Virus record (IMG/VR): IMGVR_UViG_2537562231_000027
Strand: one strand, 5' to 3'
Length of the DNA stretch: 16,219 bases
Source of the DNA: a virus
Lineage: Duplodnaviria; Heunggongvirae; Uroviricota; Caudoviricetes
The position numbers and the translations under genes are program-made. The notes under the pieces are model-generated. The model saw only the letters and a program-made list of their open reading frames with translations, did not search any database and was not told the origin of the DNA. Within the stretch, counting starts at the first letter, position 1, and each line of letters starts with the position of its first letter. Shown here in pieces: positions 5,448-14,899 of this stretch.

Positions 5448-6341
5448 TCACCAGTTGAAGTTCGTTGAGCCGTAGTCCTGTTCACTGAATCCCGAGATCG
5501 GGAGGCTTTTGCCCCGCCCACCTCCGGGGGCTGCTGGCTGTTGCCAGGATTCCTCGAAATGACGATCGGGTCCAAAGAACGTCGACGCCTGCTTCACGAA
5601 CTGGGTACCGGTATTTCCAGAGACACGCACCCAGGCGGCATACCGCTTCACGCCATCAAGCATGTTCTCCGGTTTTATTCCCTCCCTGATACGTGCTTTC
5701 CAGGCTTTGAAGGCTGCTGACTTGGAATTGCCACCAGCACGTTTGGGATATTCCTGCCATGCCTGTTCAAATTCCGGTGAATATTCCTGTCGGGCAGAAC
5801 GCGCTGGTGCAGACGCGTCAGCGGATGCGCCAATAGTGTTTTTACTCTCTGTAGTACTCTCTGAAGTAATCTCTGTTGTATTCTCTGTAAGATCGAAATT
5901 GGTTTTCCCTTCACCGCGGCGAGGGGTTTCCCGTGTCCGCGGTGAAGGCTTTCCCTCCTCCGCGAAATTGGGTTTTACAGTTTCCCGAAAACGGGTTTCC
6001 CCATTTCGGGAAAACTGATTGTTTTCATTGATAATTTCATTAAGGCGCTCACAATCTATACGGTAGAACATTTTGTGCTCAAGACGCTTGTTGGTTTCAA
6101 CCAAAATGCCTCTGGACACAAGATGCTTACGCGCTACAGCCTGTTGTTCAAATGTAAGTCCGGTTTCGTGTTGTATCTCTTCACGCGTTTTATGTACGCC
6201 TTCCGCTGCATGTGCTTTATCCTGCCAGTAAAAAATCTGACCAAAGAAAATAACAGCGTGCGGACTTCCCATGTATTTAACGAGCCCAGGGTAATAAGCA
6301 ACCGGATGCCCAAAATCGAGCAGAAGATCAGACGGACGCAT
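5448..6341 (-). CDS. Phage replication initiator (O-like replisome organizer) with internal origin repeats
   Basis: ATG at 6341 preceded by GGGAGGTG. Central T/E/S-rich linker is encoded by tandem DNA repeats. Lies immediately upstream of the DnaC-like and DnaB-like genes. Confidence 0.75.
   Translation of the reverse strand: MRPSDLLLDFGHPVAYYPGLVKYMGSPHAVIFFGQIFYWQDKAHAAEGVHKTREEIQHETGLTFEQQAVARKHLVSRGILVETNKRLEHKMFYRIDCERLNEIINENNQFSRNGETRFRETVKPNFAEEGKPSPRTRETPRRGEGKTNFDLTENTTEITSESTTESKNTIGASADASAPARSARQEYSPEFEQAWQEYPKRAGGNSKSAAFKAWKARIREGIKPENMLDGVKRYAAWVRVSGNTGTQFVKQASTFFGPDRHFEESWQQPAAPGGGRGKSLPISGFSEQDYGSTNFNW
5842..6060. repeat. Candidate replication origin inside the initiator gene: four 12-bp tandem repeats, five TTTCCC-core iteron-like repeats, adjacent AT-rich tract
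   Basis: 12-bp repeats GTAnTCTCTGnn at 5842-5889. TTTCCC cores at 5904, 5927, 5950, 5981 and 5997 (first three 23 bp apart), with a local palindrome CCCGAAAACGGG. AT-rich tract at 6020-6060. Confidence 0.5.
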
Positions 6342-6561
6342 AGCCACCTCCCAGGCGTTTAAACATTTTTCCGGACTGAAACGCCACTAGTGGGTAACTG
6401 ATGGTGTAGTTACGCCCCAGTAATTCACACACAACTTTCTGGCTTTCGGTGCTGACCAGGCAAACCCGCAGAACGCGACCGTCGCTGGTGGCGAACCACT
6501 GCCCCACACGGGGGCAACGGTTGTGTCGGTGATACAGAGAATTAACGAGGCGGCGAATCAT
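6328..6561 (-). CDS. Hypothetical protein (77 aa)
   Basis: ATG at 6561 with SD GGGAGGTG 6 nt upstream; ATGA overlap with the upstream gene's stop; 3' end overlaps the initiator start by 14 nt. Confidence 0.55.
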   Translation of the reverse strand: MIRRLVNSLYHRHNRCPRVGQWFATSDGRVLRVCLVSTESQKVVCELLGRNYTISYPLVAFQSGKMFKRLGGGYASV

Positions 6562-6920
6562 GGGCGCACCTCCCATTGATTACAGCGGAAAGCTGTATGA
6601 TTCAGGCTGGTTTCAGCTTCATGGAATGCCTCAATGCAGCTCTCGTAGTACCGCATTGTGCGCAGACTTAACCCAAGCTGAAGCATCATCAGGCCATCAA
6701 GAGTGATGTAATAACCACGCAGGGAGTCACCGTAGATGTGATAAGTACCCGGTATGAAATTGCAGGTAAAAAACTCGCGTGAGCAGTTCAGATACTCGAT
6801 TTTGTCAACGATGTTCTGGTGCATTCGCTTAAAGTGGCAGGCAACATGCAGGGAGAAAATAACGGCCTTGCCGTTGACAACTTCAATTTTCAGGTATGGG
6901 GAAGTTGGGACAGTAGCCAT
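6558..6920 (-). CDS. Hypothetical protein (120 aa), Cys/His-containing
   Basis: Internal ATG at 6920 with SD GGAGG 8 nt upstream; product MATVPTSPYLKIEVVNGKAVIFSLHVACHFKRMHQNIVDKIEYLNCS... The track ORF extends to an ATG at 7220 through GC-rich, low-complexity sequence with no RBS. Confidence 0.5.
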   Translation of the reverse strand: MATVPTSPYLKIEVVNGKAVIFSLHVACHFKRMHQNIVDKIEYLNCSREFFTCNFIPGTYHIYGDSLRGYYITLDGLMMLQLGLSLRTMRYYESCIEAFHEAETSLNHTAFRCNQWEVRP

Positions 6921-7085
6921 GATGGCAGCCTCCGTTGACTGTGGAAAACTTCCACCACCGGAGCTGCGAAACTCACTGGTGGCAGACTGAACAGGGTTCG
7001 CAGTACCGGCGTCAACGGAGACCGGCGAGCCTTTCGGCTCCCCTGCCCAGCCCACCATAATTCTGGCGTGCGTGAGCGCGGACGA

Positions 7086-7106
7086 TAAAAAAGACGCTGG
7101 CGCGTC
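7086..7106 (-). terminator. Candidate intrinsic terminator in the early-right operon (tR1-like)
   Basis: Minus-strand RNA reads GACGC-GCCA-GCGTC followed by TTTTTTAT. Short 5-bp GC stem. Confidence 0.4.
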
Positions 7107-7304
7107 ATATATCGCCGTTGACAATTCCGGGCTGCGACCCCCGGCACCCGCTTTATAAGGTGCGGAGACAGTGTAACGTCCCGAAATTGCAGAATCAATA
7201 TTTGGTCTTGAAATGATCATATAGCTGCTGATATCTTTAGAACTGTTCTTGGATGTTTCGGAGCCGTTTTATGCGAAACAGCTCCCCGTTATTGATGTTG
7301 AGTG

Positions 7305-7329
7305 AGCCGGGTTACTCCCGGCTTTTTTT
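7305..7329 (+). terminator. Rho-independent terminator on plus strand, antisense to the early-right operon
   Basis: AGCCGGG-TTACT-CCCGGCT followed by TTTTTTT; the T-run ends at the Rha-like stop codon. No U-tract on the minus strand, so it is unidirectional. Confidence 0.55.
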
Positions 7330-8036
7330 CACCGCTGCCAACCAATAACCTGAAATAACCCCATTTTCGGGTGATACCAGCGAGTCCCTCGCGGTTCTGC
7401 TTCCTCCATAACCCGATAAAAAGCAGCCATAAACGGTTCCACAGCAACAATTGCGCGACGTGACAACAATCCGTCCGGCGTCATGAACTCATGGGTGTCT
7501 GTAGGAATCTGATAGGCGTTCACCAGATTGCGGCATTTATCATCTGACAAACCGGTTTTTGCTTTCAGTTGGCGATATCCGGCATAGCCCTCACGAATAG
7601 TGCCCTTTTTAATTTGCTCGACTGTTTCAGCAACGTGGCTGACTTTTTCTTCCACCTGAGTGATCCGTTTCTGCTGACGAACTGCTTCAAGAGCCATCGC
7701 GGCAACCATTTCGATTTCGCTCATTGGCTTACGGATCTGTTCTTCCAGTTCGCGCCAGCGATCTACCAGGCGAGCAGTGAATTCAGGACAGAGCTGTGCG
7801 ACGACAATGATGCTGTCGCGCTTACCTCGTTCACCTTCGAATACATACGCGCTAGAAAATCGGCGAGGCCCAAGTGATTGTTTATTCTCAATTTCCACAG
7901 TCTGTGGAAATTGGATGATTCCCTTTTTAGCCAGTGTTTCAATAGTTCTCTTAACACTATCTGGTCGGCTTCCCACCAGCTCTGCGATCTCAACGCTGGT
8001 CATGGATGCTTTGCCGTTAAAAATTGCGGTGTTCAT
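7329..8036 (-). CDS. Phage regulatory protein, Rha family
   Basis: N-terminus MTSVEIAELVGSRPDSVKRTIETLAKKG...RLVDRWRELEEQ resembles the Phage_pRha signature. SD AGGAG 7 nt upstream; ATG overlaps the Cro-like stop (ATGA). Confidence 0.8.
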   Translation of the reverse strand: MNTAIFNGKASMTSVEIAELVGSRPDSVKRTIETLAKKGIIQFPQTVEIENKQSLGPRRFSSAYVFEGERGKRDSIIVVAQLCPEFTARLVDRWRELEEQIRKPMSEIEMVAAMALEAVRQQKRITQVEEKVSHVAETVEQIKKGTIREGYAGYRQLKAKTGLSDDKCRNLVNAYQIPTDTHEFMTPDGLLSRRAIVAVEPFMAAFYRVMEEAEPRGTRWYHPKMGLFQVIGWQR

Positions 8037-8323
8037 TGTTTATCTCCTGCGTGTATTCCATCCGCTCTGTGTGGTGAACTTGGATTTAGGCTTTTGCGTA
8101 ACAAGTTAGGAATTCCATCTTCAGGGTGAGGATAAAGATCTGGCCTTAAGCCATGAGGCGTAACCTTCCATGCAACTACTTCACATACTCGTAAAACGAA
8201 ACGAGCAGGAATTGTGCTTTTTGAAAACCACTGATTCACCGCTTGCGGCGTCACACCAAGATTTCGCGCTATGGCATTTTGCGCAATTAATGCACGAAGT
8301 TTGTCGTAATCATTTCCTTCCAT
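8033..8323 (-). CDS. Cro-like HTH regulator (YdaS-type)
   Basis: LIAQNAIARNLGVTPQAVNQWF...LRPDLYP is HTH-like. Divergent from the cI-like gene across a 133-bp regulatory region. Confidence 0.7.
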   Translation of the reverse strand: MEGNDYDKLRALIAQNAIARNLGVTPQAVNQWFSKSTIPARFVLRVCEVVAWKVTPHGLRPDLYPHPEDGIPNLLRKSLNPSSPHRADGIHAGDKQ

Positions 8324-8456
8324 AACAAAGCACCAATATTAACTTTATAAATCAAGAATACATCAAGTTTAAATTAACATGCAAGTTGCAAAAGGATCGA
8401 ATACACTAAAATCAAGTAAAGATTTATCCTTGTAAAGAAACCCACAGGATTTGGTC
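8324..8456. promoter_or_regulatory. Divergent immunity control region (OR-like) between cro-like and cI-like genes
   Basis: AT-rich. Contains three direct ATCAAG motifs, the palindrome TGCAAGTTGCA and the near-palindrome CAAGTAAAGATTTATCCTTG. Individual promoters not confidently resolved. Confidence 0.5.
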
Positions 8457-9146
8457 ATGAAGAACGTCAAAAACACGGAAAATCGAATAGCCGCGATGCT
8501 GAAAGCAAAAGGATGGACTCAGGCTCAACTGGCCCGCAAGTTAGGTGTGAGTGCGCAATCAGTGCAGTACTGGACAACAGGAAAAACATTTCCACGGAGT
8601 GATAAGCTCGCGCATTTATCAGAGATTAGCGGTTATCCACAATCCTGGTTCTTAGGTGAAGACTCCTCACCAACCTTTTCTTCGCAAGAGAAACACCAGA
8701 CAAGAACAGATAGCGTCGTATTTAATGTCCTTGATGTTGAGTTTAGTTGCGGTGATGGAACTCATGTCCGTGGTGACTTGATAGATGTAGTGCGCTCAAT
8801 AGAACTTGATCCTGAATATGCCCGACGTCTTGTTGGAAATCGGGCATTCAAAAATATAGAAATAGGTAACGCCAGAGGAGACAGTATGGCTCCCACAATC
8901 TCACCTGGCGACCTTCTTTTTCTTGATAAGACAGTAACTTATTTTGATGGCGATGGTATTTATGCATTTTGTTTTGATGGAGAATGCTACGTGAAAAGGC
9001 TTCAAAAAATTGGAAGCAAAATCATGGTGTTATCTGATAACCCCAATTATCAACCATGGAGCATCGAAAAAGAGGGGTTAGCTCTGCTTTATATCCAGTC
9101 TAAAGTGATCTCATCAGTACCATTCAACATAAACAGATTTGGTTAG
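8457..9146 (+). CDS. Prophage repressor, cI/LexA-like (N-terminal HTH, C-terminal S24 peptidase)
   Basis: HTH WTQAQLARKLGVSAQSVQYW; S24 motifs GDSMAPTISPGDLLFLDK and YVKRLQK (Ser/Lys dyad). ATG at 8457; the track start at 8451 is a TTG. Confidence 0.85.
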   Translation: MKNVKNTENRIAAMLKAKGWTQAQLARKLGVSAQSVQYWTTGKTFPRSDKLAHLSEISGYPQSWFLGEDSSPTFSSQEKHQTRTDSVVFNVLDVEFSCGDGTHVRGDLIDVVRSIELDPEYARRLVGNRAFKNIEIGNARGDSMAPTISPGDLLFLDKTVTYFDGDGIYAFCFDGECYVKRLQKIGSKIMVLSDNPNYQPWSIEKEGLALLYIQSKVISSVPFNINRFG

Positions 9147-9158
9147 TCTTTGATTTTA

Positions 9159-9180
9159 ACGGGCTTTGCCCGTTTTTTTT
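9159..9180 (+). terminator. Rho-independent terminator after the repressor gene
   Basis: ACGGGC-TTT-GCCCGT followed by eight T residues, 13 nt after the cI-like stop. Confidence 0.7.
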
Positions 9181-9210
9181 CTGCCTGAAATATACGATAT
9201 CAATTTTTTC

Positions 9211-9239
9211 TTGACAGCCTGTTTCCCAAAACATAATAT
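9211..9239 (+). promoter_or_regulatory. Strong sigma70-type promoter (PL-equivalent or accessory-operon promoter)
   Basis: TTGACA (9211-9216), 17-bp spacer, TAATAT (9234-9239). Flanked by dyads ATCAATTTTTTCTTGAC and ATCAATTATAACTTGAT that share ATCAA/TTGAT half-sites with the OR-like region. Confidence 0.6.
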
Positions 9240-9292
9240 CGCACCATCAATTATAACTTGATTTGATTCAATTTAAAATTGTTGGCGGATAT

Positions 9293-9841
9293 ATGAAGAC
9301 ACTAAAAGCAACTCCAGAAACAACTAATTTTATCAACTGCGGCTGTGTTACGCTTAAGGGCTTAGAACTTGATTCCTTTGCATTAAATATTGCAAATTTG
9401 CTAAGTGCTGTACGCACATTCCATCTTCTGGATTGTGCTCGCTCAAAGGAACTGGGCATTGAGGTAATGGAATTTATCCATGAATATGCTCTATCTGCTG
9501 CTTCTCCTGCACAACAAAAACAATCCTTCCCTGAAAGCTGGCTGGTTAACCTTCGCACCCAACGCGAAGCCTGCGGCTTAACAACCGCCGAACTCGCCAG
9601 GCTGCTCGATCTCGATGAAGAAATTATCATCCAGTGGGAGAGCGGAGAGTATGAACCAACTATCAGTATGCTTATCCCACTGGCAAATATTCTTGGCTGC
9701 GATCCGATGTGCCTGTTAACTGGTGAGGTTACTCCTCCGGAGCAACCAAAAAGTGAGGAGCAGCAACACCATGACGCATCTCAACAAGTTTGCCCCTTAT
9801 CTCGCGAAGCTCTTCTGCGGAAGAACCAATACCAATGGTGA
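9293..9841 (+). CDS. Hypothetical protein with C-terminal XRE-type HTH domain (gene A)
   Basis: HTH GLTTAELARLLDLDEEIIIQWESGEYEPTISMLIPLANILGCDPMCLL; N-terminal about 90 aa unrecognised. ATG at 9293; the track start at 9263 is a TTG. Confidence 0.6.
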   Translation: MKTLKATPETTNFINCGCVTLKGLELDSFALNIANLLSAVRTFHLLDCARSKELGIEVMEFIHEYALSAASPAQQKQSFPESWLVNLRTQREACGLTTAELARLLDLDEEIIIQWESGEYEPTISMLIPLANILGCDPMCLLTGEVTPPEQPKSEEQQHHDASQQVCPLSREALLRKNQYQW

Positions 9842-9969
9842 CATAATCGCCGCTTCGCCCTTCAAGGTACATGCGAACATTTTTATCAATCATTGCGGAA
9901 ACAGTCTCAATATGAAAACACTTCTGAGACTCGCTATATAGCAGAACATATAAGTCAGCTGAGGAAGCC

Positions 9970-10335
9970 ATGAAAAAGTTCGAAAACATAACTGTTCTCC
10001 ATGTTGATGACTTTGATTATACAAACCCGGAACTTCTCCCGGAGGTTGTAAAGGCAATAGATGTTGCCGATATAGTGATTAGAGAAAAGAGAATTGTCAA
10101 AAACAGGCTCGCATGCACTTCAGGAGCAATGACAGAAACAACCTCACAGCAAGATAATTACGAAGGCATTTGTCTGGAGCCTGATTCATTTGCGGTAAAT
10201 GTTTATCATTTATTGCATGCAACACAGGTATTACATATGTCCAGTAATCACGAAACGAAAACACTCGGCAGCGAAATTCTGAGTTTTGCATGTGAGTATA
10301 CAAAAGCTGCTGCCGAAAAAGAATTAGCGCAATAA
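9970..10335 (+). CDS. Hypothetical protein (121 aa, gene B)
   Basis: ATG with SD GAGGAAG 5 nt upstream; no recognisable motifs. Confidence 0.6.
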   Translation: MKKFENITVLHVDDFDYTNPELLPEVVKAIDVADIVIREKRIVKNRLACTSGAMTETTSQQDNYEGICLEPDSFAVNVYHLLHATQVLHMSSNHETKTLGSEILSFACEYTKAAAEKELAQ

Positions 10336-10413
10336 CAACAAATATGCCCTGAACGTTTATTGCGGTTTTATCGCCGGGGATTGTTACAACCTTAATCCAC
10401 AGGAGGCTTTATT

Positions 10414-10527
10414 GTGACTTTTATAAAGAATATGGCATCACACAAGACCGCCTGCCTTATTGCACAATACGGTGAAAATTACATGCATATTGCCTACTTA
10501 TTTCTGCGTAAAGCATACGGGAGATAA
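10414..10527 (+). CDS. Candidate small ORF (37 aa), GTG start
   Basis: Perfect SD AGGAGG 7 nt upstream of GTG; stop lies 2 nt before the gene C ATG. Below the ORF-track size cutoff. Confidence 0.3.
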   Translation: MTFIKNMASHKTACLIAQYGENYMHIAYLFLRKAYGR

Positions 10528-10529
10528 TA

Positions 10530-10712
10530 ATGCATCAGAAAACAGCAGAACACGAGCAAACCAGAGTATTGCTGACCGTCAAAAACGGGAAAGTAATATT
10601 AATTCGTCATGTTCATGACGATGAACTTGTAGGAAGTCTTTCAACATTCCTGTTTATTGCAGAAAAGGCAGGATATGACGTTATTGCACCAGCTGATGAA
10701 GATGAGGAGTAA
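10530..10712 (+). CDS. Hypothetical small protein (60 aa, acidic C-terminus; gene C)
   Basis: SD GGGAGA 6 nt upstream; its 3' end contains the GAGGAG SD for the following IS1-disrupted gene. Confidence 0.55.
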   Translation: MHQKTAEHEQTRVLLTVKNGKVILIRHVHDDELVGSLSTFLFIAEKAGYDVIAPADEDEE

Positions 10713-10717
10713 ATATC

Positions 10718-10792
10718 ATGCAATACACTGAATTCCAGGCTGAAGCAACAGCCGGTAATGACTCCAACTTATTGATAGTGTTTTATGTTTAG
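10718..10792 (+). pseudogene. 5' fragment of IS1-interrupted gene D (12 native codons, then read-through into IS1)
   Basis: ATG at 10718 with SD GAGGAG 8 nt upstream; reading frame enters IS1 at 10754 and stops at 10790-10792. Deleting IS1 plus one target-duplication copy joins it in frame to the ORF at 11552. Confidence 0.6.
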
Positions 10793-11272
10793 ATAATGCC
10801 CGATGACTTTGTCATGCAGCTCCACCGATTTTGAGAACGACAGCGACTTCCGTCCCAGCCGTGCCAGGTGCTGCCTCAGATTCAGGTTATGCCGCTCAAT
10901 TCGCTGCGTATATCGCTTGCTGATTACGTGCAGCTTTCCCTTCAGGCGGGATTCATACAGCGGCCAGCCATCCGTCATCCATATCACCACGTCAAAGGGT
11001 GACAGCAGGCTCATAAGACGCCCCAGCGTCGCCATAGTGCGTTCACCGAATACGTGCGCAACAACCGTCTTCCGGAGCCTGTCATACGCGTAAAACAGCC
11101 AGCGCTGGCGCGATTTAGCCCCGACATAGCCCCACTGTTCGTCCATTTCCGCGCAGACGATGACGTCACTGCCCGGCTGTATGCGCGAGGTTACCGACTG
11201 CGGCCTGAGTTTTTTAAGTGACGTAAAATCGTGTTGAGGCCAACGCCCATAATGCGGGCGGTTGCCCGGCAT
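10769..11272 (-). CDS. insB: IS1 InsB reading frame (made as an InsAB' fusion by -1 frameshift)
   Basis: Canonical InsB-frame sequence ...[49 protein letters not shown]... Confidence 0.9.
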
Positions 11273-11466
11273 CCAACGCCATTCATGGCCATATCAATGA
11301 TTTTCTGGTGCGTACCGGGTTGAGAAGCGGTGTAAGTGAACTGCAGTTGCCATGTTTTACGGCAGTGAGAGCAGAGATAGCGCTGATGTCCGGCAGTGCT
11401 TTTGCCGTTACGCACCACCCCGTCAGTAGCTGAACAGGAGGGACAGCTGATAGAAACAGAAGCCAC
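11191..11466 (-). CDS. insA: IS1 InsA
   Basis: [43 protein letters not shown]... (91 aa); ends at the A6C frameshift motif. Confidence 0.9.
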
Positions 11467-11551
11467 TGGAGCACCTCAAAAACACCATCATACACTAAAT
11501 CAGTAAGTTGGCAGCATCACCGCAACAGCCACAGGTATACGAACTGGCAGT

Positions 11552-12067
11552 ATGACTATTGATTATCACGACGCAATCCGCCGTCTGGATGCAGGTGAAT
11601 TCGATCATCCTAATGTGAAAGGTTTGCAAATCCTTCAATGCCTCGCACAAGCCGACAATGCAGGATTACTGGGTAAACTCCCTGTTGAGATGAAGGTAGC
11701 CCAGTGGCGCTGGTTGTACGTGACGACATTCATCAACGAAGAAGAAAACAAGAATGGCACTATTGATATCCCAAACGAACACGGAACAACAGATCGCGCC
11801 GTAATATATAACGGGAAGCATGGGGTTATGACGATATATCCCGGCCCCATTCGGTTTGCCTTACAGCAGTATATTGAATGGAATTTAATTCAAAAATACG
11901 GCGAGGCAGAAGGAATGGGTAGAGCACTATTTCTTTATCAGAAAATGCTCATTACATACCCAGATAAAGGTTTCATTGTTTCAGACATGGGGCGAGAAGG
12001 GCTTGAACTCCTTCTGGATGAAATGATTAACGACCTGAATACTCATGGTATGCCAGAAGGCCAGTGA
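11552..12067 (+). CDS. 3' portion (171 codons) of IS1-interrupted hypothetical gene D
   Basis: Intact ORF from ATG 11552 with no SD of its own. In frame with the 10718 fragment once IS1 is removed; reconstructed product about 190 aa: MQYTEFQAEATATGIRTGSMTIDYHDAIRR... Confidence 0.6.
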   Translation: MTIDYHDAIRRLDAGEFDHPNVKGLQILQCLAQADNAGLLGKLPVEMKVAQWRWLYVTTFINEEENKNGTIDIPNEHGTTDRAVIYNGKHGVMTIYPGPIRFALQQYIEWNLIQKYGEAEGMGRALFLYQKMLITYPDKGFIVSDMGREGLELLLDEMINDLNTHGMPEGQ

Positions 12068-12263
12068 CACATTAAATATTAAGAGGAATATAATTCTTCC
12101 GTTTTTTACTAACCGTTTATATGAAAAGCAACCGTGACTTAAGCAGAGTAAAACTGCTTTTAATCCTTGCCACAGTACTGACAATAACAGAAATCATTAT
12201 TCTCTTTAGGTGATGCTGCCAACTTACTGATTTAGTGTATGATGGTGTTTTTGAGGTGCTCCA

Positions 12264-12539
12264 GTGGCTTCTGTTTCTATCAGCTGTCCCTCCTGTTCAG
12301 CTACTGACGGGGTGGTGCGTAACGGCAAAAGCACTGCCGGACATCAGCGCTATCTCTGCTCTCACTGCCGTAAAACATGGCAACTGCAGTTCACTTACAC
12401 CGCTTCTCAACCCGGTACGCACCAGAAAATCATTGATATGGCCATGAATGGCGTTGGATGCCGGGCAACCGCCCGCATTATGGGCGTTGGCCTCAACACG
12501 ATTTTCCGCCATTTAAAAAACTCAGGCCGCAGTCGGTAA
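12264..12539 (+). CDS. insA: IS1 InsA (variant)
   Basis: 91 aa; differs from copy 1 by L to F in ...[14 protein letters not shown]; A6C frameshift motif at 12515-12521. Confidence 0.9.
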
Positions 12540-12961
12540 CCTCGCGCATACAGCCGGGCAGTGACGTCATCGTCTGCGCGGAAATGGACGAACAGTGGGG
12601 CTACGTCGGTGCTAAATCACGTCAGCGCTGGCTGTTTTACGCGTATGACAGGATACGGAGGACAGTTGTGGCGCACGTTTTCGGTGAACGCACTCTGGCC
12701 ACACTGGAGCGTCTTCTGAGCCTGCTGTCGGCCTTTGAGGTCGTGGTATGGATGACGGATGGCTGGCCGCTGTATGAATCACGCCTGAAGGGAAAGCTGC
12801 ACGTTATCAGCAAGCGTTACACTCAGCGCATTGAGCGACATAATCTGAATCTGAGACAACATCTGGCAAGGCTGGGACGGAAGTCGCTGTCGTTCTCAAA
12901 ATCGGTGGAGCTGCATGACAAGGTCATCGGGCATTATCTGAACATAAAACACTATCAGTAA
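12458..12961 (+). CDS. insB: IS1 InsB reading frame (variant)
   Basis: InsB frame with substitutions relative to copy 1 (IRR versus [22 protein letters not shown] versus [19 protein letters not shown]). Confidence 0.9.
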
Positions 12962-13028
12962 GTTGGAGTCACTACCTTCTCTTTATTGCGCTGTCTGTCA
13001 GTTAAAAATATCGGGATACCACATACCA

Positions 13029-13217
13029 ATGAAACTGTATTTCACAATAGTAATTTTACTGGCAATTATCGCATGCATTTACGGATTACTCGTTCCGTTC
13101 CTTATATCCATGAAGGATACGATAGCAGTTATTTCTGGCTTTGCACTGGCGTTTCTGACCCCGCCCTGCATTTATGCCATTTACAAGGGTCTTTCTTTCA
13201 CTAAGGATAAAAAATGA
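13029..13217 (+). CDS. Small integral membrane protein (62 aa, two predicted TM helices)
   Basis: MKLYFTIVILLAIIACIYGLLVPFLISMKDTIAVISGFALAFLTPPCIYAIY...; stop overlaps the lipoprotein start (ATGA). The track ORF begins at a TTG inside IS1 and was trimmed. Confidence 0.55.
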   Translation: MKLYFTIVILLAIIACIYGLLVPFLISMKDTIAVISGFALAFLTPPCIYAIYKGLSFTKDKK

Positions 13218-14041
13218 AAAAATTTATTTTTGCTTTAGCCATTGTTCTGCCGACCATTGGCCTTGTCGGCTGCGATCGCGTTGAACCCGGTAATGTTGGC
13301 ATCAAAGTAAATAAACTGGGCGACGATAAAGGCGTCGGTGAGGTGGTCGGTGTTGGTCGCTACTGGACTGGCTGGAATACTGAAGTTTACATCTTCCCAA
13401 CCTTCAAACAAATGAAGACCTACGATGAGCCGTTCAGCTTCCAGATGAGTGACGGCACAACCATTGGCTATCACATCGGTGTTGCCTACAAAGTTGATCC
13501 ATCCAAAGTTACCACGGTGTTTCAGACCTACCGCAAAGGCGTGGATGACATTACCGACACTGACCTGCGCCAGAAGATCGCCGACGCACTCAATCGACTG
13601 GCCAGCAAAATGACCACTGACAAATTTATCGACGGCGGGAAGTCTGAACTACTGGATGCAGCTCTTAAAGACATTCAGGCAGAAATGACGCCCATAGGTA
13701 TTCAGGTAATGAGTCTCTCATATGTGGGTAAGCCGGAGTACCCGCCAACCGTTATCGACAGCATTAATGCCAAAGTCACGGCGAACCAGAAAACCCTGCA
13801 ACGCGAACAGGAAGTAAAACAGCGCGAAGCGGAAGCTAACATGTTGCGCGCGGAAGCTGCCGGACAGGCAGATGCGATTCGCACAAAAGCCCAGGCCGAG
13901 GCCGATGCTATTCGTTTACGCGGTGAAGCTCTGCGCCAGAACCCTGGCGTCATGGAGCTGGAAGCCATCAACAAGTGGAACGGTACTCTGCCGCAATACA
14001 TGACCAGCGGTGCCAATACACCATTTATCCAGATTAAATAA
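13214..14041 (+). CDS. SPFH/band-7 (prohibitin/HflC-like) domain lipoprotein
   Basis: Signal peptide with lipobox LVGC (Cys20) and Asp at +2, predicting inner-membrane retention. SPFH-like core and Ala/Glu-rich coiled-coil tail. SD AAGGA 7 nt upstream. Confidence 0.85.
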   Translation: MKKFIFALAIVLPTIGLVGCDRVEPGNVGIKVNKLGDDKGVGEVVGVGRYWTGWNTEVYIFPTFKQMKTYDEPFSFQMSDGTTIGYHIGVAYKVDPSKVTTVFQTYRKGVDDITDTDLRQKIADALNRLASKMTTDKFIDGGKSELLDAALKDIQAEMTPIGIQVMSLSYVGKPEYPPTVIDSINAKVTANQKTLQREQEVKQREAEANMLRAEAAGQADAIRTKAQAEADAIRLRGEALRQNPGVMELEAINKWNGTLPQYMTSGANTPFIQIK

Positions 14042-14069: not shown

Positions 14070-14453
14070 ATGGAAAATCAGATGAACAACCAGAATACTC
14101 AACCGCAAATAATGAACTATGACCCGAATCTGACGTCGTGCGGACGCATGGCAAAACAAACCGTTCGATTAACTTTCGGACTATGGGAATACCGCGAAAC
14201 ATTCGAAGTTACTGTCGGCGGCAATCTGACCGGACTGGATGTTATCAATTGCGCTATTGAAAGCCTGTACGCAACGCTGCCTTATGAAGAAGTCCTGGAT
14301 GAGCGCACAGGGAAAACGGATATCATGGCCACCATTAATATTGGCGAACTGATATGCCAGGATGAAGACCTGTCCGGGGAACTCTGGCTTGCCGGGATGC
14401 TTATCTCAGCAGAAATTATCAGTATTGAACCCGCTACAAACATACGGCTCTGA
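14070..14453 (+). CDS. Hypothetical acidic protein (about 128 aa)
   Basis: Track ORF trimmed to the first ATG after the lipoprotein stop; start uncertain (ATG at 14082 also possible). A GC-rich hairpin lies just upstream. Confidence 0.55.
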   Translation: MENQMNNQNTQPQIMNYDPNLTSCGRMAKQTVRLTFGLWEYRETFEVTVGGNLTGLDVINCAIESLYATLPYEEVLDERTGKTDIMATINIGELICQDEDLSGELWLAGMLISAEIISIEPATNIRL

Positions 14454-14484
14454 AGTTCTCACTATTCAGAGAGCAGGAGAAAAA

Positions 14485-14601
14485 ATGTTCGCTCTGATTA
14501 ATCAGGGACAACTGTATACCGACAGTGCCGGTTACCCGGTAAAAATTGTTCGCTGCATAAACAACACCGTGTTGTACAGAAGATGTGAAGCGAATGTTTG
14601 A
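14485..14601 (+). CDS. Hypothetical small protein (38 aa)
   Basis: ATG with strong SD AGGAGA 5-6 nt upstream; track ORF trimmed from an upstream alternative start. Confidence 0.4.
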   Translation: MFALINQGQLYTDSAGYPVKIVRCINNTVLYRRCEANV

Positions 14602-14644: not shown

Positions 14645-14899
14645 ATGCAGACAATCATCTATCAGATAACCCCCAGCAAATGGTGTACGGAGAGAGTCCT
14701 CATTGCATCAACAGGGCTAAAGCCTGGCACCATCGAGCGAGCCAGAAGAAAGTCATGGATGCAGGGAAAAGAATACCGCCATTACGCTGTAGAAGGTGAT
14801 CCGGGGCATTACAGTGAATGCCTGTACAACATCGAAGAAATTATGCGATGGATCGAAAACCAGAAACAACCAGGTGCCAAAAATGCAAGTTCCGGTTAA
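14645..14899 (+). CDS. Excisionase-like protein (DUF1233-type putative Xis)
   Basis: ITPSKWCTERVLIASTGLKPGTIERARRKSWMQGKEYRHY resembles excisionase-like proteins found upstream of prophage integrases. SD GAGG 5 nt upstream. Confidence 0.7.
   Translation: MQTIIYQITPSKWCTERVLIASTGLKPGTIERARRKSWMQGKEYRHYAVEGDPGHYSECLYNIEEIMRWIENQKQPGAKNASSG

Follow-up and report, generated by a model that had tools for sequence, protein, structure and literature searches.

The 16,219-nucleotide stretch of viral DNA analyzed here (IMG/VR record IMGVR_UViG_2537562231_000027, hereafter the window) contains a prophage gene, gene D, whose coding sequence has, with a probability of about 95% in our estimate, been split by a simple transposition of the insertion sequence IS1. 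Both copies of the 9-bp sequence GCAACAGCC directly abut the ends of this element (IS1-A), and the repeat is perfect. Identity of 9 bp at two fixed positions is expected by chance with a probability of 4^-9, or about 4e-6, and 9 bp is the size established for the target duplication of IS1. The original prediction had placed an IS1 with identical flanking repeats at this locus, and all of its coordinates, given here in Table 1, hold.

The IS1 element interrupting gene D

All coding and end features of IS1-A are intact, and the element is a complete IS1. It is exactly 768 bp in size, with IRL and IRR matching at 18 of 23 positions. The minus strand holds insA (11466-11191), encoding a 91-aa InsA (zinc ribbon and HTH) with the PF03811 and PF12759 domains in a Pfam scan, and the insB' frame (11272-10769). 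The A6C frameshift motif TTAAAAAAC is preserved, and a simulated -1 frameshift yields a 232-aa InsAB' protein, the DDE transposase, matching PF03400 (E = 2e-78). The DNA of IS1-A is 100% identical to copies annotated as 'IS1-like element IS1A family', and its IRL end points toward the 3' part of gene D.

Of the 5426 complete E. coli genomes, 4951 contain IS1, at a median of 11 places in those with a match. The element reportedly prefers AT-rich targets (Zerbib et al. 1985, cited in PMC9330008), and the neighborhoods of both IS1 copies in the window (the second, IS1-B, is described below) fit this preference, the GC content being 0.37 around the target of IS1-A and 0.36 around that of IS1-B versus 0.48 for the window. 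In its 768-bp length, imperfect terminal inverted repeats of about 23 bp, insA, A6C frameshift, InsAB' transposase, 9-bp target duplication, and locally AT-rich target, IS1-A is the same as other simple insertions of IS1 (IS1A/IS1R type) in E. coli; there is no difference in kind, and only the insertion site is particular.

Removal of positions 10754-11530 leaves an open frame of 573 nt (190 codons and a stop) that ends at 12067. This agrees with the original prediction, by which IS1 splits gene D after codon 12 and excision of the element with one repeat restores a frame of roughly 190 aa. Comparison with uninterrupted related loci, the check named beforehand, gave the same frame and the same continuity as the reconstruction. 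In E. coli STEC17-190 (NZ_CP075649.1) there is an uninterrupted 573-nt CDS, WP_032253186.1, annotated as 'hypothetical protein', from which the rebuilt gene differs at 0 of 573 nucleotides and whose product is 100% identical to the rebuilt protein. With zero substitutions relative to the intact allele, the description of the insertion as recent is also borne out.

At least 1000 contigs encode precisely this 190-aa protein. A gene D CDS of the same 573 nt occurs in the Stx2a phage LC567842, with 38 nucleotide differences, of which 22 fall on the third position of a codon, and 94% identity of the protein (179/190 aa). With the IS removed, the region is matched across 80% or more of its length by 136 complete E. 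coli genomes, and it also matches several Stx-converting and phiP27-like phages. Members of the gene D family are present in 273 of the 5426 complete genomes, always on the chromosome, and all 40 matches sampled from throughout the ranked list had it as one unbroken piece.

By profile comparison, gene D belongs to phrog_1515, a family of unknown function that is represented in phiP27-like and Stx-converting lambdoid prophages by a 'hypothetical protein'. The rebuilt protein matches the profile end to end (residues 1-189 against positions 12-199 of 203, E = 6.3e-92). No Pfam, defense-system, or structural relative of gene D was found. Among the PADLOC-DB profiles, none matched the gene D, 60-aa, 121-aa, SPFH, or DUF5406 proteins of the region, and the 192-aa regulator gave generic HTH matches only.

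Table 1. Coordinates of gene D, the two IS1 copies, and neighboring genes in the window
Feature	Position	Strand	Details	Basis
CI-type S24 repressor	8451-9146	+		Pfam
HTH protein	9263-9841	+	192 aa	Pfam
Upstream 60-codon gene	10530-10712	+	phrog_340, function unknown; 'hypothetical protein' in loci L001 and L002	
Gene D Shine-Dalgarno sequence	10704-10709	+	GAGGAG, 8 nt before ATG 10718	
Gene D, 5' fragment	10718-10753	+	codons 1-12, MQYTEFQAEATA	
Left target-site duplication of IS1-A	10745-10753	.	GCAACAGCC, gene D codons 10-12	sequence slicing
IS1-A	10754-11521	-	complete 768-bp IS1, IS1A type	open frames, Pfam, identity to annotated copies
Right target-site duplication of IS1-A	11522-11530	.	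GCAACAGCC	sequence slicing
Gene D, 3' fragment	11531-12067	+	codons 13-190 plus stop	
Left target-site duplication of IS1-B	12200-12208	.	TTCTCTTTA	sequence slicing
IS1-B	12209-12976	+	another complete IS1 of 768 bp, opposite in orientation to IS1-A	
Right target-site duplication of IS1-B	12977-12985	.	TTCTCTTTA	sequence slicing
SPFH lipoprotein gene	13214-14041	+		Pfam
Excisionase (xis)	14645-14899	+		Pfam
Integrase (int)	14933 onwards	+		Pfam

Start of gene D and order of the insertions

The upstream ATG 10718 is the true start of gene D, because the N-terminus is conserved, the phrog_1515 match spans residues 1-189, the starts of homologues overlap the upstream gene, and a strong Shine-Dalgarno sequence is present. 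The latter is located within the final codons of the 60-codon gene, and ATG 10718 stands 5 nt after the stop of that gene; in diverged prophages the homologue starts at the full-length position, with a 4-nt overlap with the upstream stop. In an alignment of 23 homologues, residues 1-19 are conserved down to 46% identity, with E9, T11, G14, and I15 invariant, and position 20 is Met in this sublineage only and T, R, or L in the other homologues. One might instead take the 171-codon ORF from 11552 as the real gene, in which case IS1 would lie in the leader between two genes and affect transcription only, without splitting a CDS. Automatic gene calling does give a 171-aa product, both for the interrupted allele and for an allele with a 14-bp duplication discussed below, and several NCBI accessions contain precisely this 171-aa protein. 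However, such calls are limited to alleles in which the 190-codon frame is broken, intact alleles being annotated as 190 aa, and this places IS1-A inside the coding sequence, after codon 12. The conservation of residues 1-19 as protein, the restriction of Met20 to one sublineage, the lack of any Shine-Dalgarno sequence at 11552, and the overlap of distant homologue starts with the upstream stop codon also stand against the shorter gene, which we consider very improbable; on the grounds of conservation, Shine-Dalgarno sequence, and gene overlap, the internal ATG was rejected as the true start.

An origin of the split from a larger mobile unit was weighed in the same way. IS1-B lies 141 bp downstream of the gene D stop; it has 39 mismatches to IS1-A in 768 positions (5% divergence), and copies in E. 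coli ATCC 8739 match it with 100% identity. The pair forms an inverted 782-nt repeat, 94% complementary, around 673-687 bp. Composite transposons may contain direct IS1 copies, as in Tn9, or inverted copies, as around the ST enterotoxin gene in Tn1681, and here two intact inverted IS1 copies bracket 687 bp (11522-12208), so that a Tn1681-like unit could have arrived together with a gene fragment. Each IS1, however, keeps its own perfect 9-bp duplication, which means that the pair did not arrive as a composite transposon and that no inversion or deletion has taken place between the copies. In contrast to transposons of the Tn9/Tn1681 type, which likewise have two intact IS1 copies around a short segment, there is no shared outer target duplication, as the outer flanks GCAACAGCC and TTCTCTTTA differ; the copies are divergent; and what lies between them is a gene fragment alone, whose DNA is identical to that of IS-free prophages and collinear with it. 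Moreover, locus L005 (GCA_036927635.1) is identical to window positions 5552-12208 including IS1-A, with the IS1-B site empty. Contigs L007 and L008 begin inside the IS1-A end and have the same right junction and, again, an empty IS1-B site; single copies of GCAACAGCC and TTCTCTTTA are found at the empty sites in L001 and L005. Thus IS1-A inserted first and is shared by a lineage, being common to at least four assemblies (L004, L005, L007, and L008), and IS1-B followed later, the pair being built in place via two separate insertions. A composite-transposon origin, refuted by the intermediate state in L005, deserves next to no credence. We give as little to an assembly artefact, in which IS1-A would have come from a collapsed repeat in a draft contig. 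The window does derive from a draft assembly (ADUM01000115.1 of GCA_000184765.2, without a mismatch in the 10.7 kb of overlap), and IS1 is multiply present in E. coli genomes as noted above. Against this, both junctions are base-perfect with the target duplication, and other samples show the same junctions in independent assemblies, among them Logan assemblies built from raw reads (L005, L007, and L008). The left junction of IS1-A was found in 0 of the 5426 complete E. coli RefSeq genomes.

Several observations concern the surroundings of IS1-B. It is positioned 43 bp before ATG 13029 of a 62-aa gene coupled to the SPFH gene, and it may sever the SPFH operon from upstream transcription. It also splits an unannotated 35-codon ORF, MKSNRDLSRVKLLLILATVLTITEIIILFIALSVS (12121-12208 plus 12986-13006), whose interrupted version has 30 aa. 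This ORF resembles a single-pass membrane peptide. It has no evident Shine-Dalgarno sequence, and its DNA is 100% identical in all close loci, hence its conservation is uninformative. At the left end of IS1-B, on the minus strand (12193-12222), the outward -35 TTGGCA is combined with AATGAT at 18-nt spacing, matching 9 of 12 positions as a hybrid promoter; this candidate is directed leftward, antisense to the gene D remainder.

Consequences for the remainder of gene D

The interrupted 5' frame continues into IS1-A as far as TAG 10790-10792 and so encodes a stub of 24 aa. The only available start in the 3' fragment is the non-conserved internal ATG 11552 (171 codons, 11552-12067), and the earlier statement that this part lacks its native start and Shine-Dalgarno sequence is correct. 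It had been added that the remainder is probably inactivated or else depends on IS1-derived signals. The former stands; for the latter, neither a promoter-like site nor a hybrid promoter nor a fusion frame was found.

In a consensus promoter scan, which detects sigma-70-like promoters only, no promoter-like site was seen on the plus strand from IS1-A to 11552, the inward insA promoter on the minus strand being the sole detection. The inverted repeat of IS1 is described to carry an outward -35 box (PMC8764528; PMC9330008), with hybrid promoters formed only if a -10 box is correctly spaced (PMC8764528). For the outward -35 TTGGCA at 11508-11513 there is no -10 partner, the best match to TATAAT at spacers of 15-20 being 2 of 6. 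The in-frame TAA 11504-11506 inside the IS1-A end means that there is no fusion reading out of IS1. Given the consensus scan, the manual hybrid-promoter test, and the in-frame stop, IS1-derived expression of the gene D remainder was therefore rejected as improbable. A weak possibility is that some weak transcription out of or through IS1 might be combined with inefficient initiation at ATG 11552.

The AF2 model of a 95%-identical homologue (P0001, the first sequence of a 23-sequence alignment) has a mean pLDDT of 85 and a pTM of 0.81, and in it three beta strands are predicted at residues 8-11, 14-17, and 20-22. The insertion removes or truncates these strands (residues 8-22). According to this model, a product starting from Met20 would lack the first two strands as well as the invariant residues. 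The interrupted gene D is most likely a null allele.

The proposed course of events is as follows. Gene D normally has its translation start at ATG 10718, in close coupling with the 60-codon gene before it. The IS1 transposase would have made a 9-bp staggered cut at GCAACAGCC, within codons 10-12, and gap repair would have duplicated these 9 bp on either side of the 768-bp IS1-A. The insertion leaves the short stub and a 178-codon 3' remainder without start or ribosome-binding site, and, with no new promoter supplied for the remainder, a null allele is the most likely outcome. A second IS1 variant then inserted downstream in the opposite orientation, producing the look of a composite transposon that was in fact assembled in place.

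Prophage setting and other disrupted alleles

Gene D lies between repressor and integrase in the left arm of a lambdoid prophage integrated at mlrA (yehV), the site being assigned because mlrA comes after the integrase in L004; no tRNA genes were found within the window. On the minus strand, Pfam identifies a Q antiterminator, DUF968, a DnaB-like helicase, a DnaC/IstB-like loader, Rha/Ash proteins, and a Cro-like protein. On the plus strand, the HTH protein is followed by a 121-aa ORF, the 60-aa gene, gene D, and small membrane ORFs, and a DUF5406 gene is present between the SPFH gene and xis. A short DUF4222 ORF (14425-14601) lies between DUF5406 and xis, and its equivalent in NZ_CP075649.1 is flagged as an incomplete pseudogene.

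One part of the original prediction, that gene D is the last gene of its operon, is unproven, since the 62-aa gene, the SPFH lipoprotein gene, the DUF5406 gene, xis, and int come after it on the same strand. The hairpin with a T-run after gene D (dG -4.6 kcal/mol, z = 0.58) is no better than in shuffled sequence. Gene D thus probably does not close the run of genes on this strand. IS1 is polar in both orientations, and if transcription normally continues past gene D, polar effects of the two IS1 copies on the genes from SPFH to int are to be expected.

Directly after the repressor gene there is a terminator-like hairpin (9158-9174 plus a T-run), followed by a good sigma-70-like promoter, TTGACA-17-TAATAT, at 9211-9239. 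The latter is flanked by the 17-bp palindromes ATCAA-N7-TTGA(T/C) at 9199-9215 and 9246-9262, and ATCAAG half-sites occur again in the cI-cro intergenic region (8351-8427). The stretch 9158-9262 resembles an early-left promoter of the OL/pL type, under repressor control, that would serve the gene D operon. In the stretch 9263-10335, the 192-aa HTH protein (in its N-terminal part, residues 33-81) has the same PHROG matches (phrog_5451 and phrog_4587) as the 121-aa ORF in its C-terminal half, which suggests a duplicated or shuffled module. Compared with L001 and L003, this stretch is also the mosaic breakpoint: identity is about 79% upstream of approximately 10358 and 99% downstream.

Gene D is broken in other prophages as well. 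A 14-bp tandem duplication, ACTGGCAGTATGAC, is present in L003 (5960-6000) and L006 (3555-3595), corresponding to window positions 11538-11551, and it shifts the 190-codon frame just upstream of the internal ATG. Within the aligned segments, gene D of these loci has no mismatches with the window, and the 171-aa remainder is exactly identical. Both prophages are IS-free, and the duplication is an independent disruption of gene D. Homologues on other E. coli contigs (P0023, P0026, P0027, P0031, and P0033) have out-of-frame C-terminal tails or truncations, and these broken alleles point to repeated pseudogenization of the gene D family in E. coli prophages. It is conceivable, though we regard it as unlikely, that loss of gene D is favored, or that two polar IS1 copies between the putative early-left promoter and xis-int lock the prophage, toward domestication. 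The case for repeated loss comes from the same gene D sequence having been disabled twice independently, by IS1-A and by the 14-bp duplication, together with the frameshifts in P0023, P0027, P0031, and P0033. The disruptions of gene D are compatible both with selection and with the neutral decay usual for prophage accessory genes.

Overall, the finding is an ordinary IS1 insertion, routine mobile-element biology already known in kind, whose effect would be loss of gene D function and possibly polarity on the genes downstream. For annotation, it means that the 171-aa call in the source assembly is the 3' part of an IS1-disrupted pseudogene of a 190-aa family. The nested history, from the intact locus to IS1-A and then to IS1-A with IS1-B, with the 14-bp duplication as a sister allele, serves both as a lineage marker and as an illustration of stepwise IS1 accumulation. 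The strain can be used as a natural knockout of an uncharacterized prophage gene, and, should a function be assigned to phrog_1515 later, such natural null alleles would be convenient controls.
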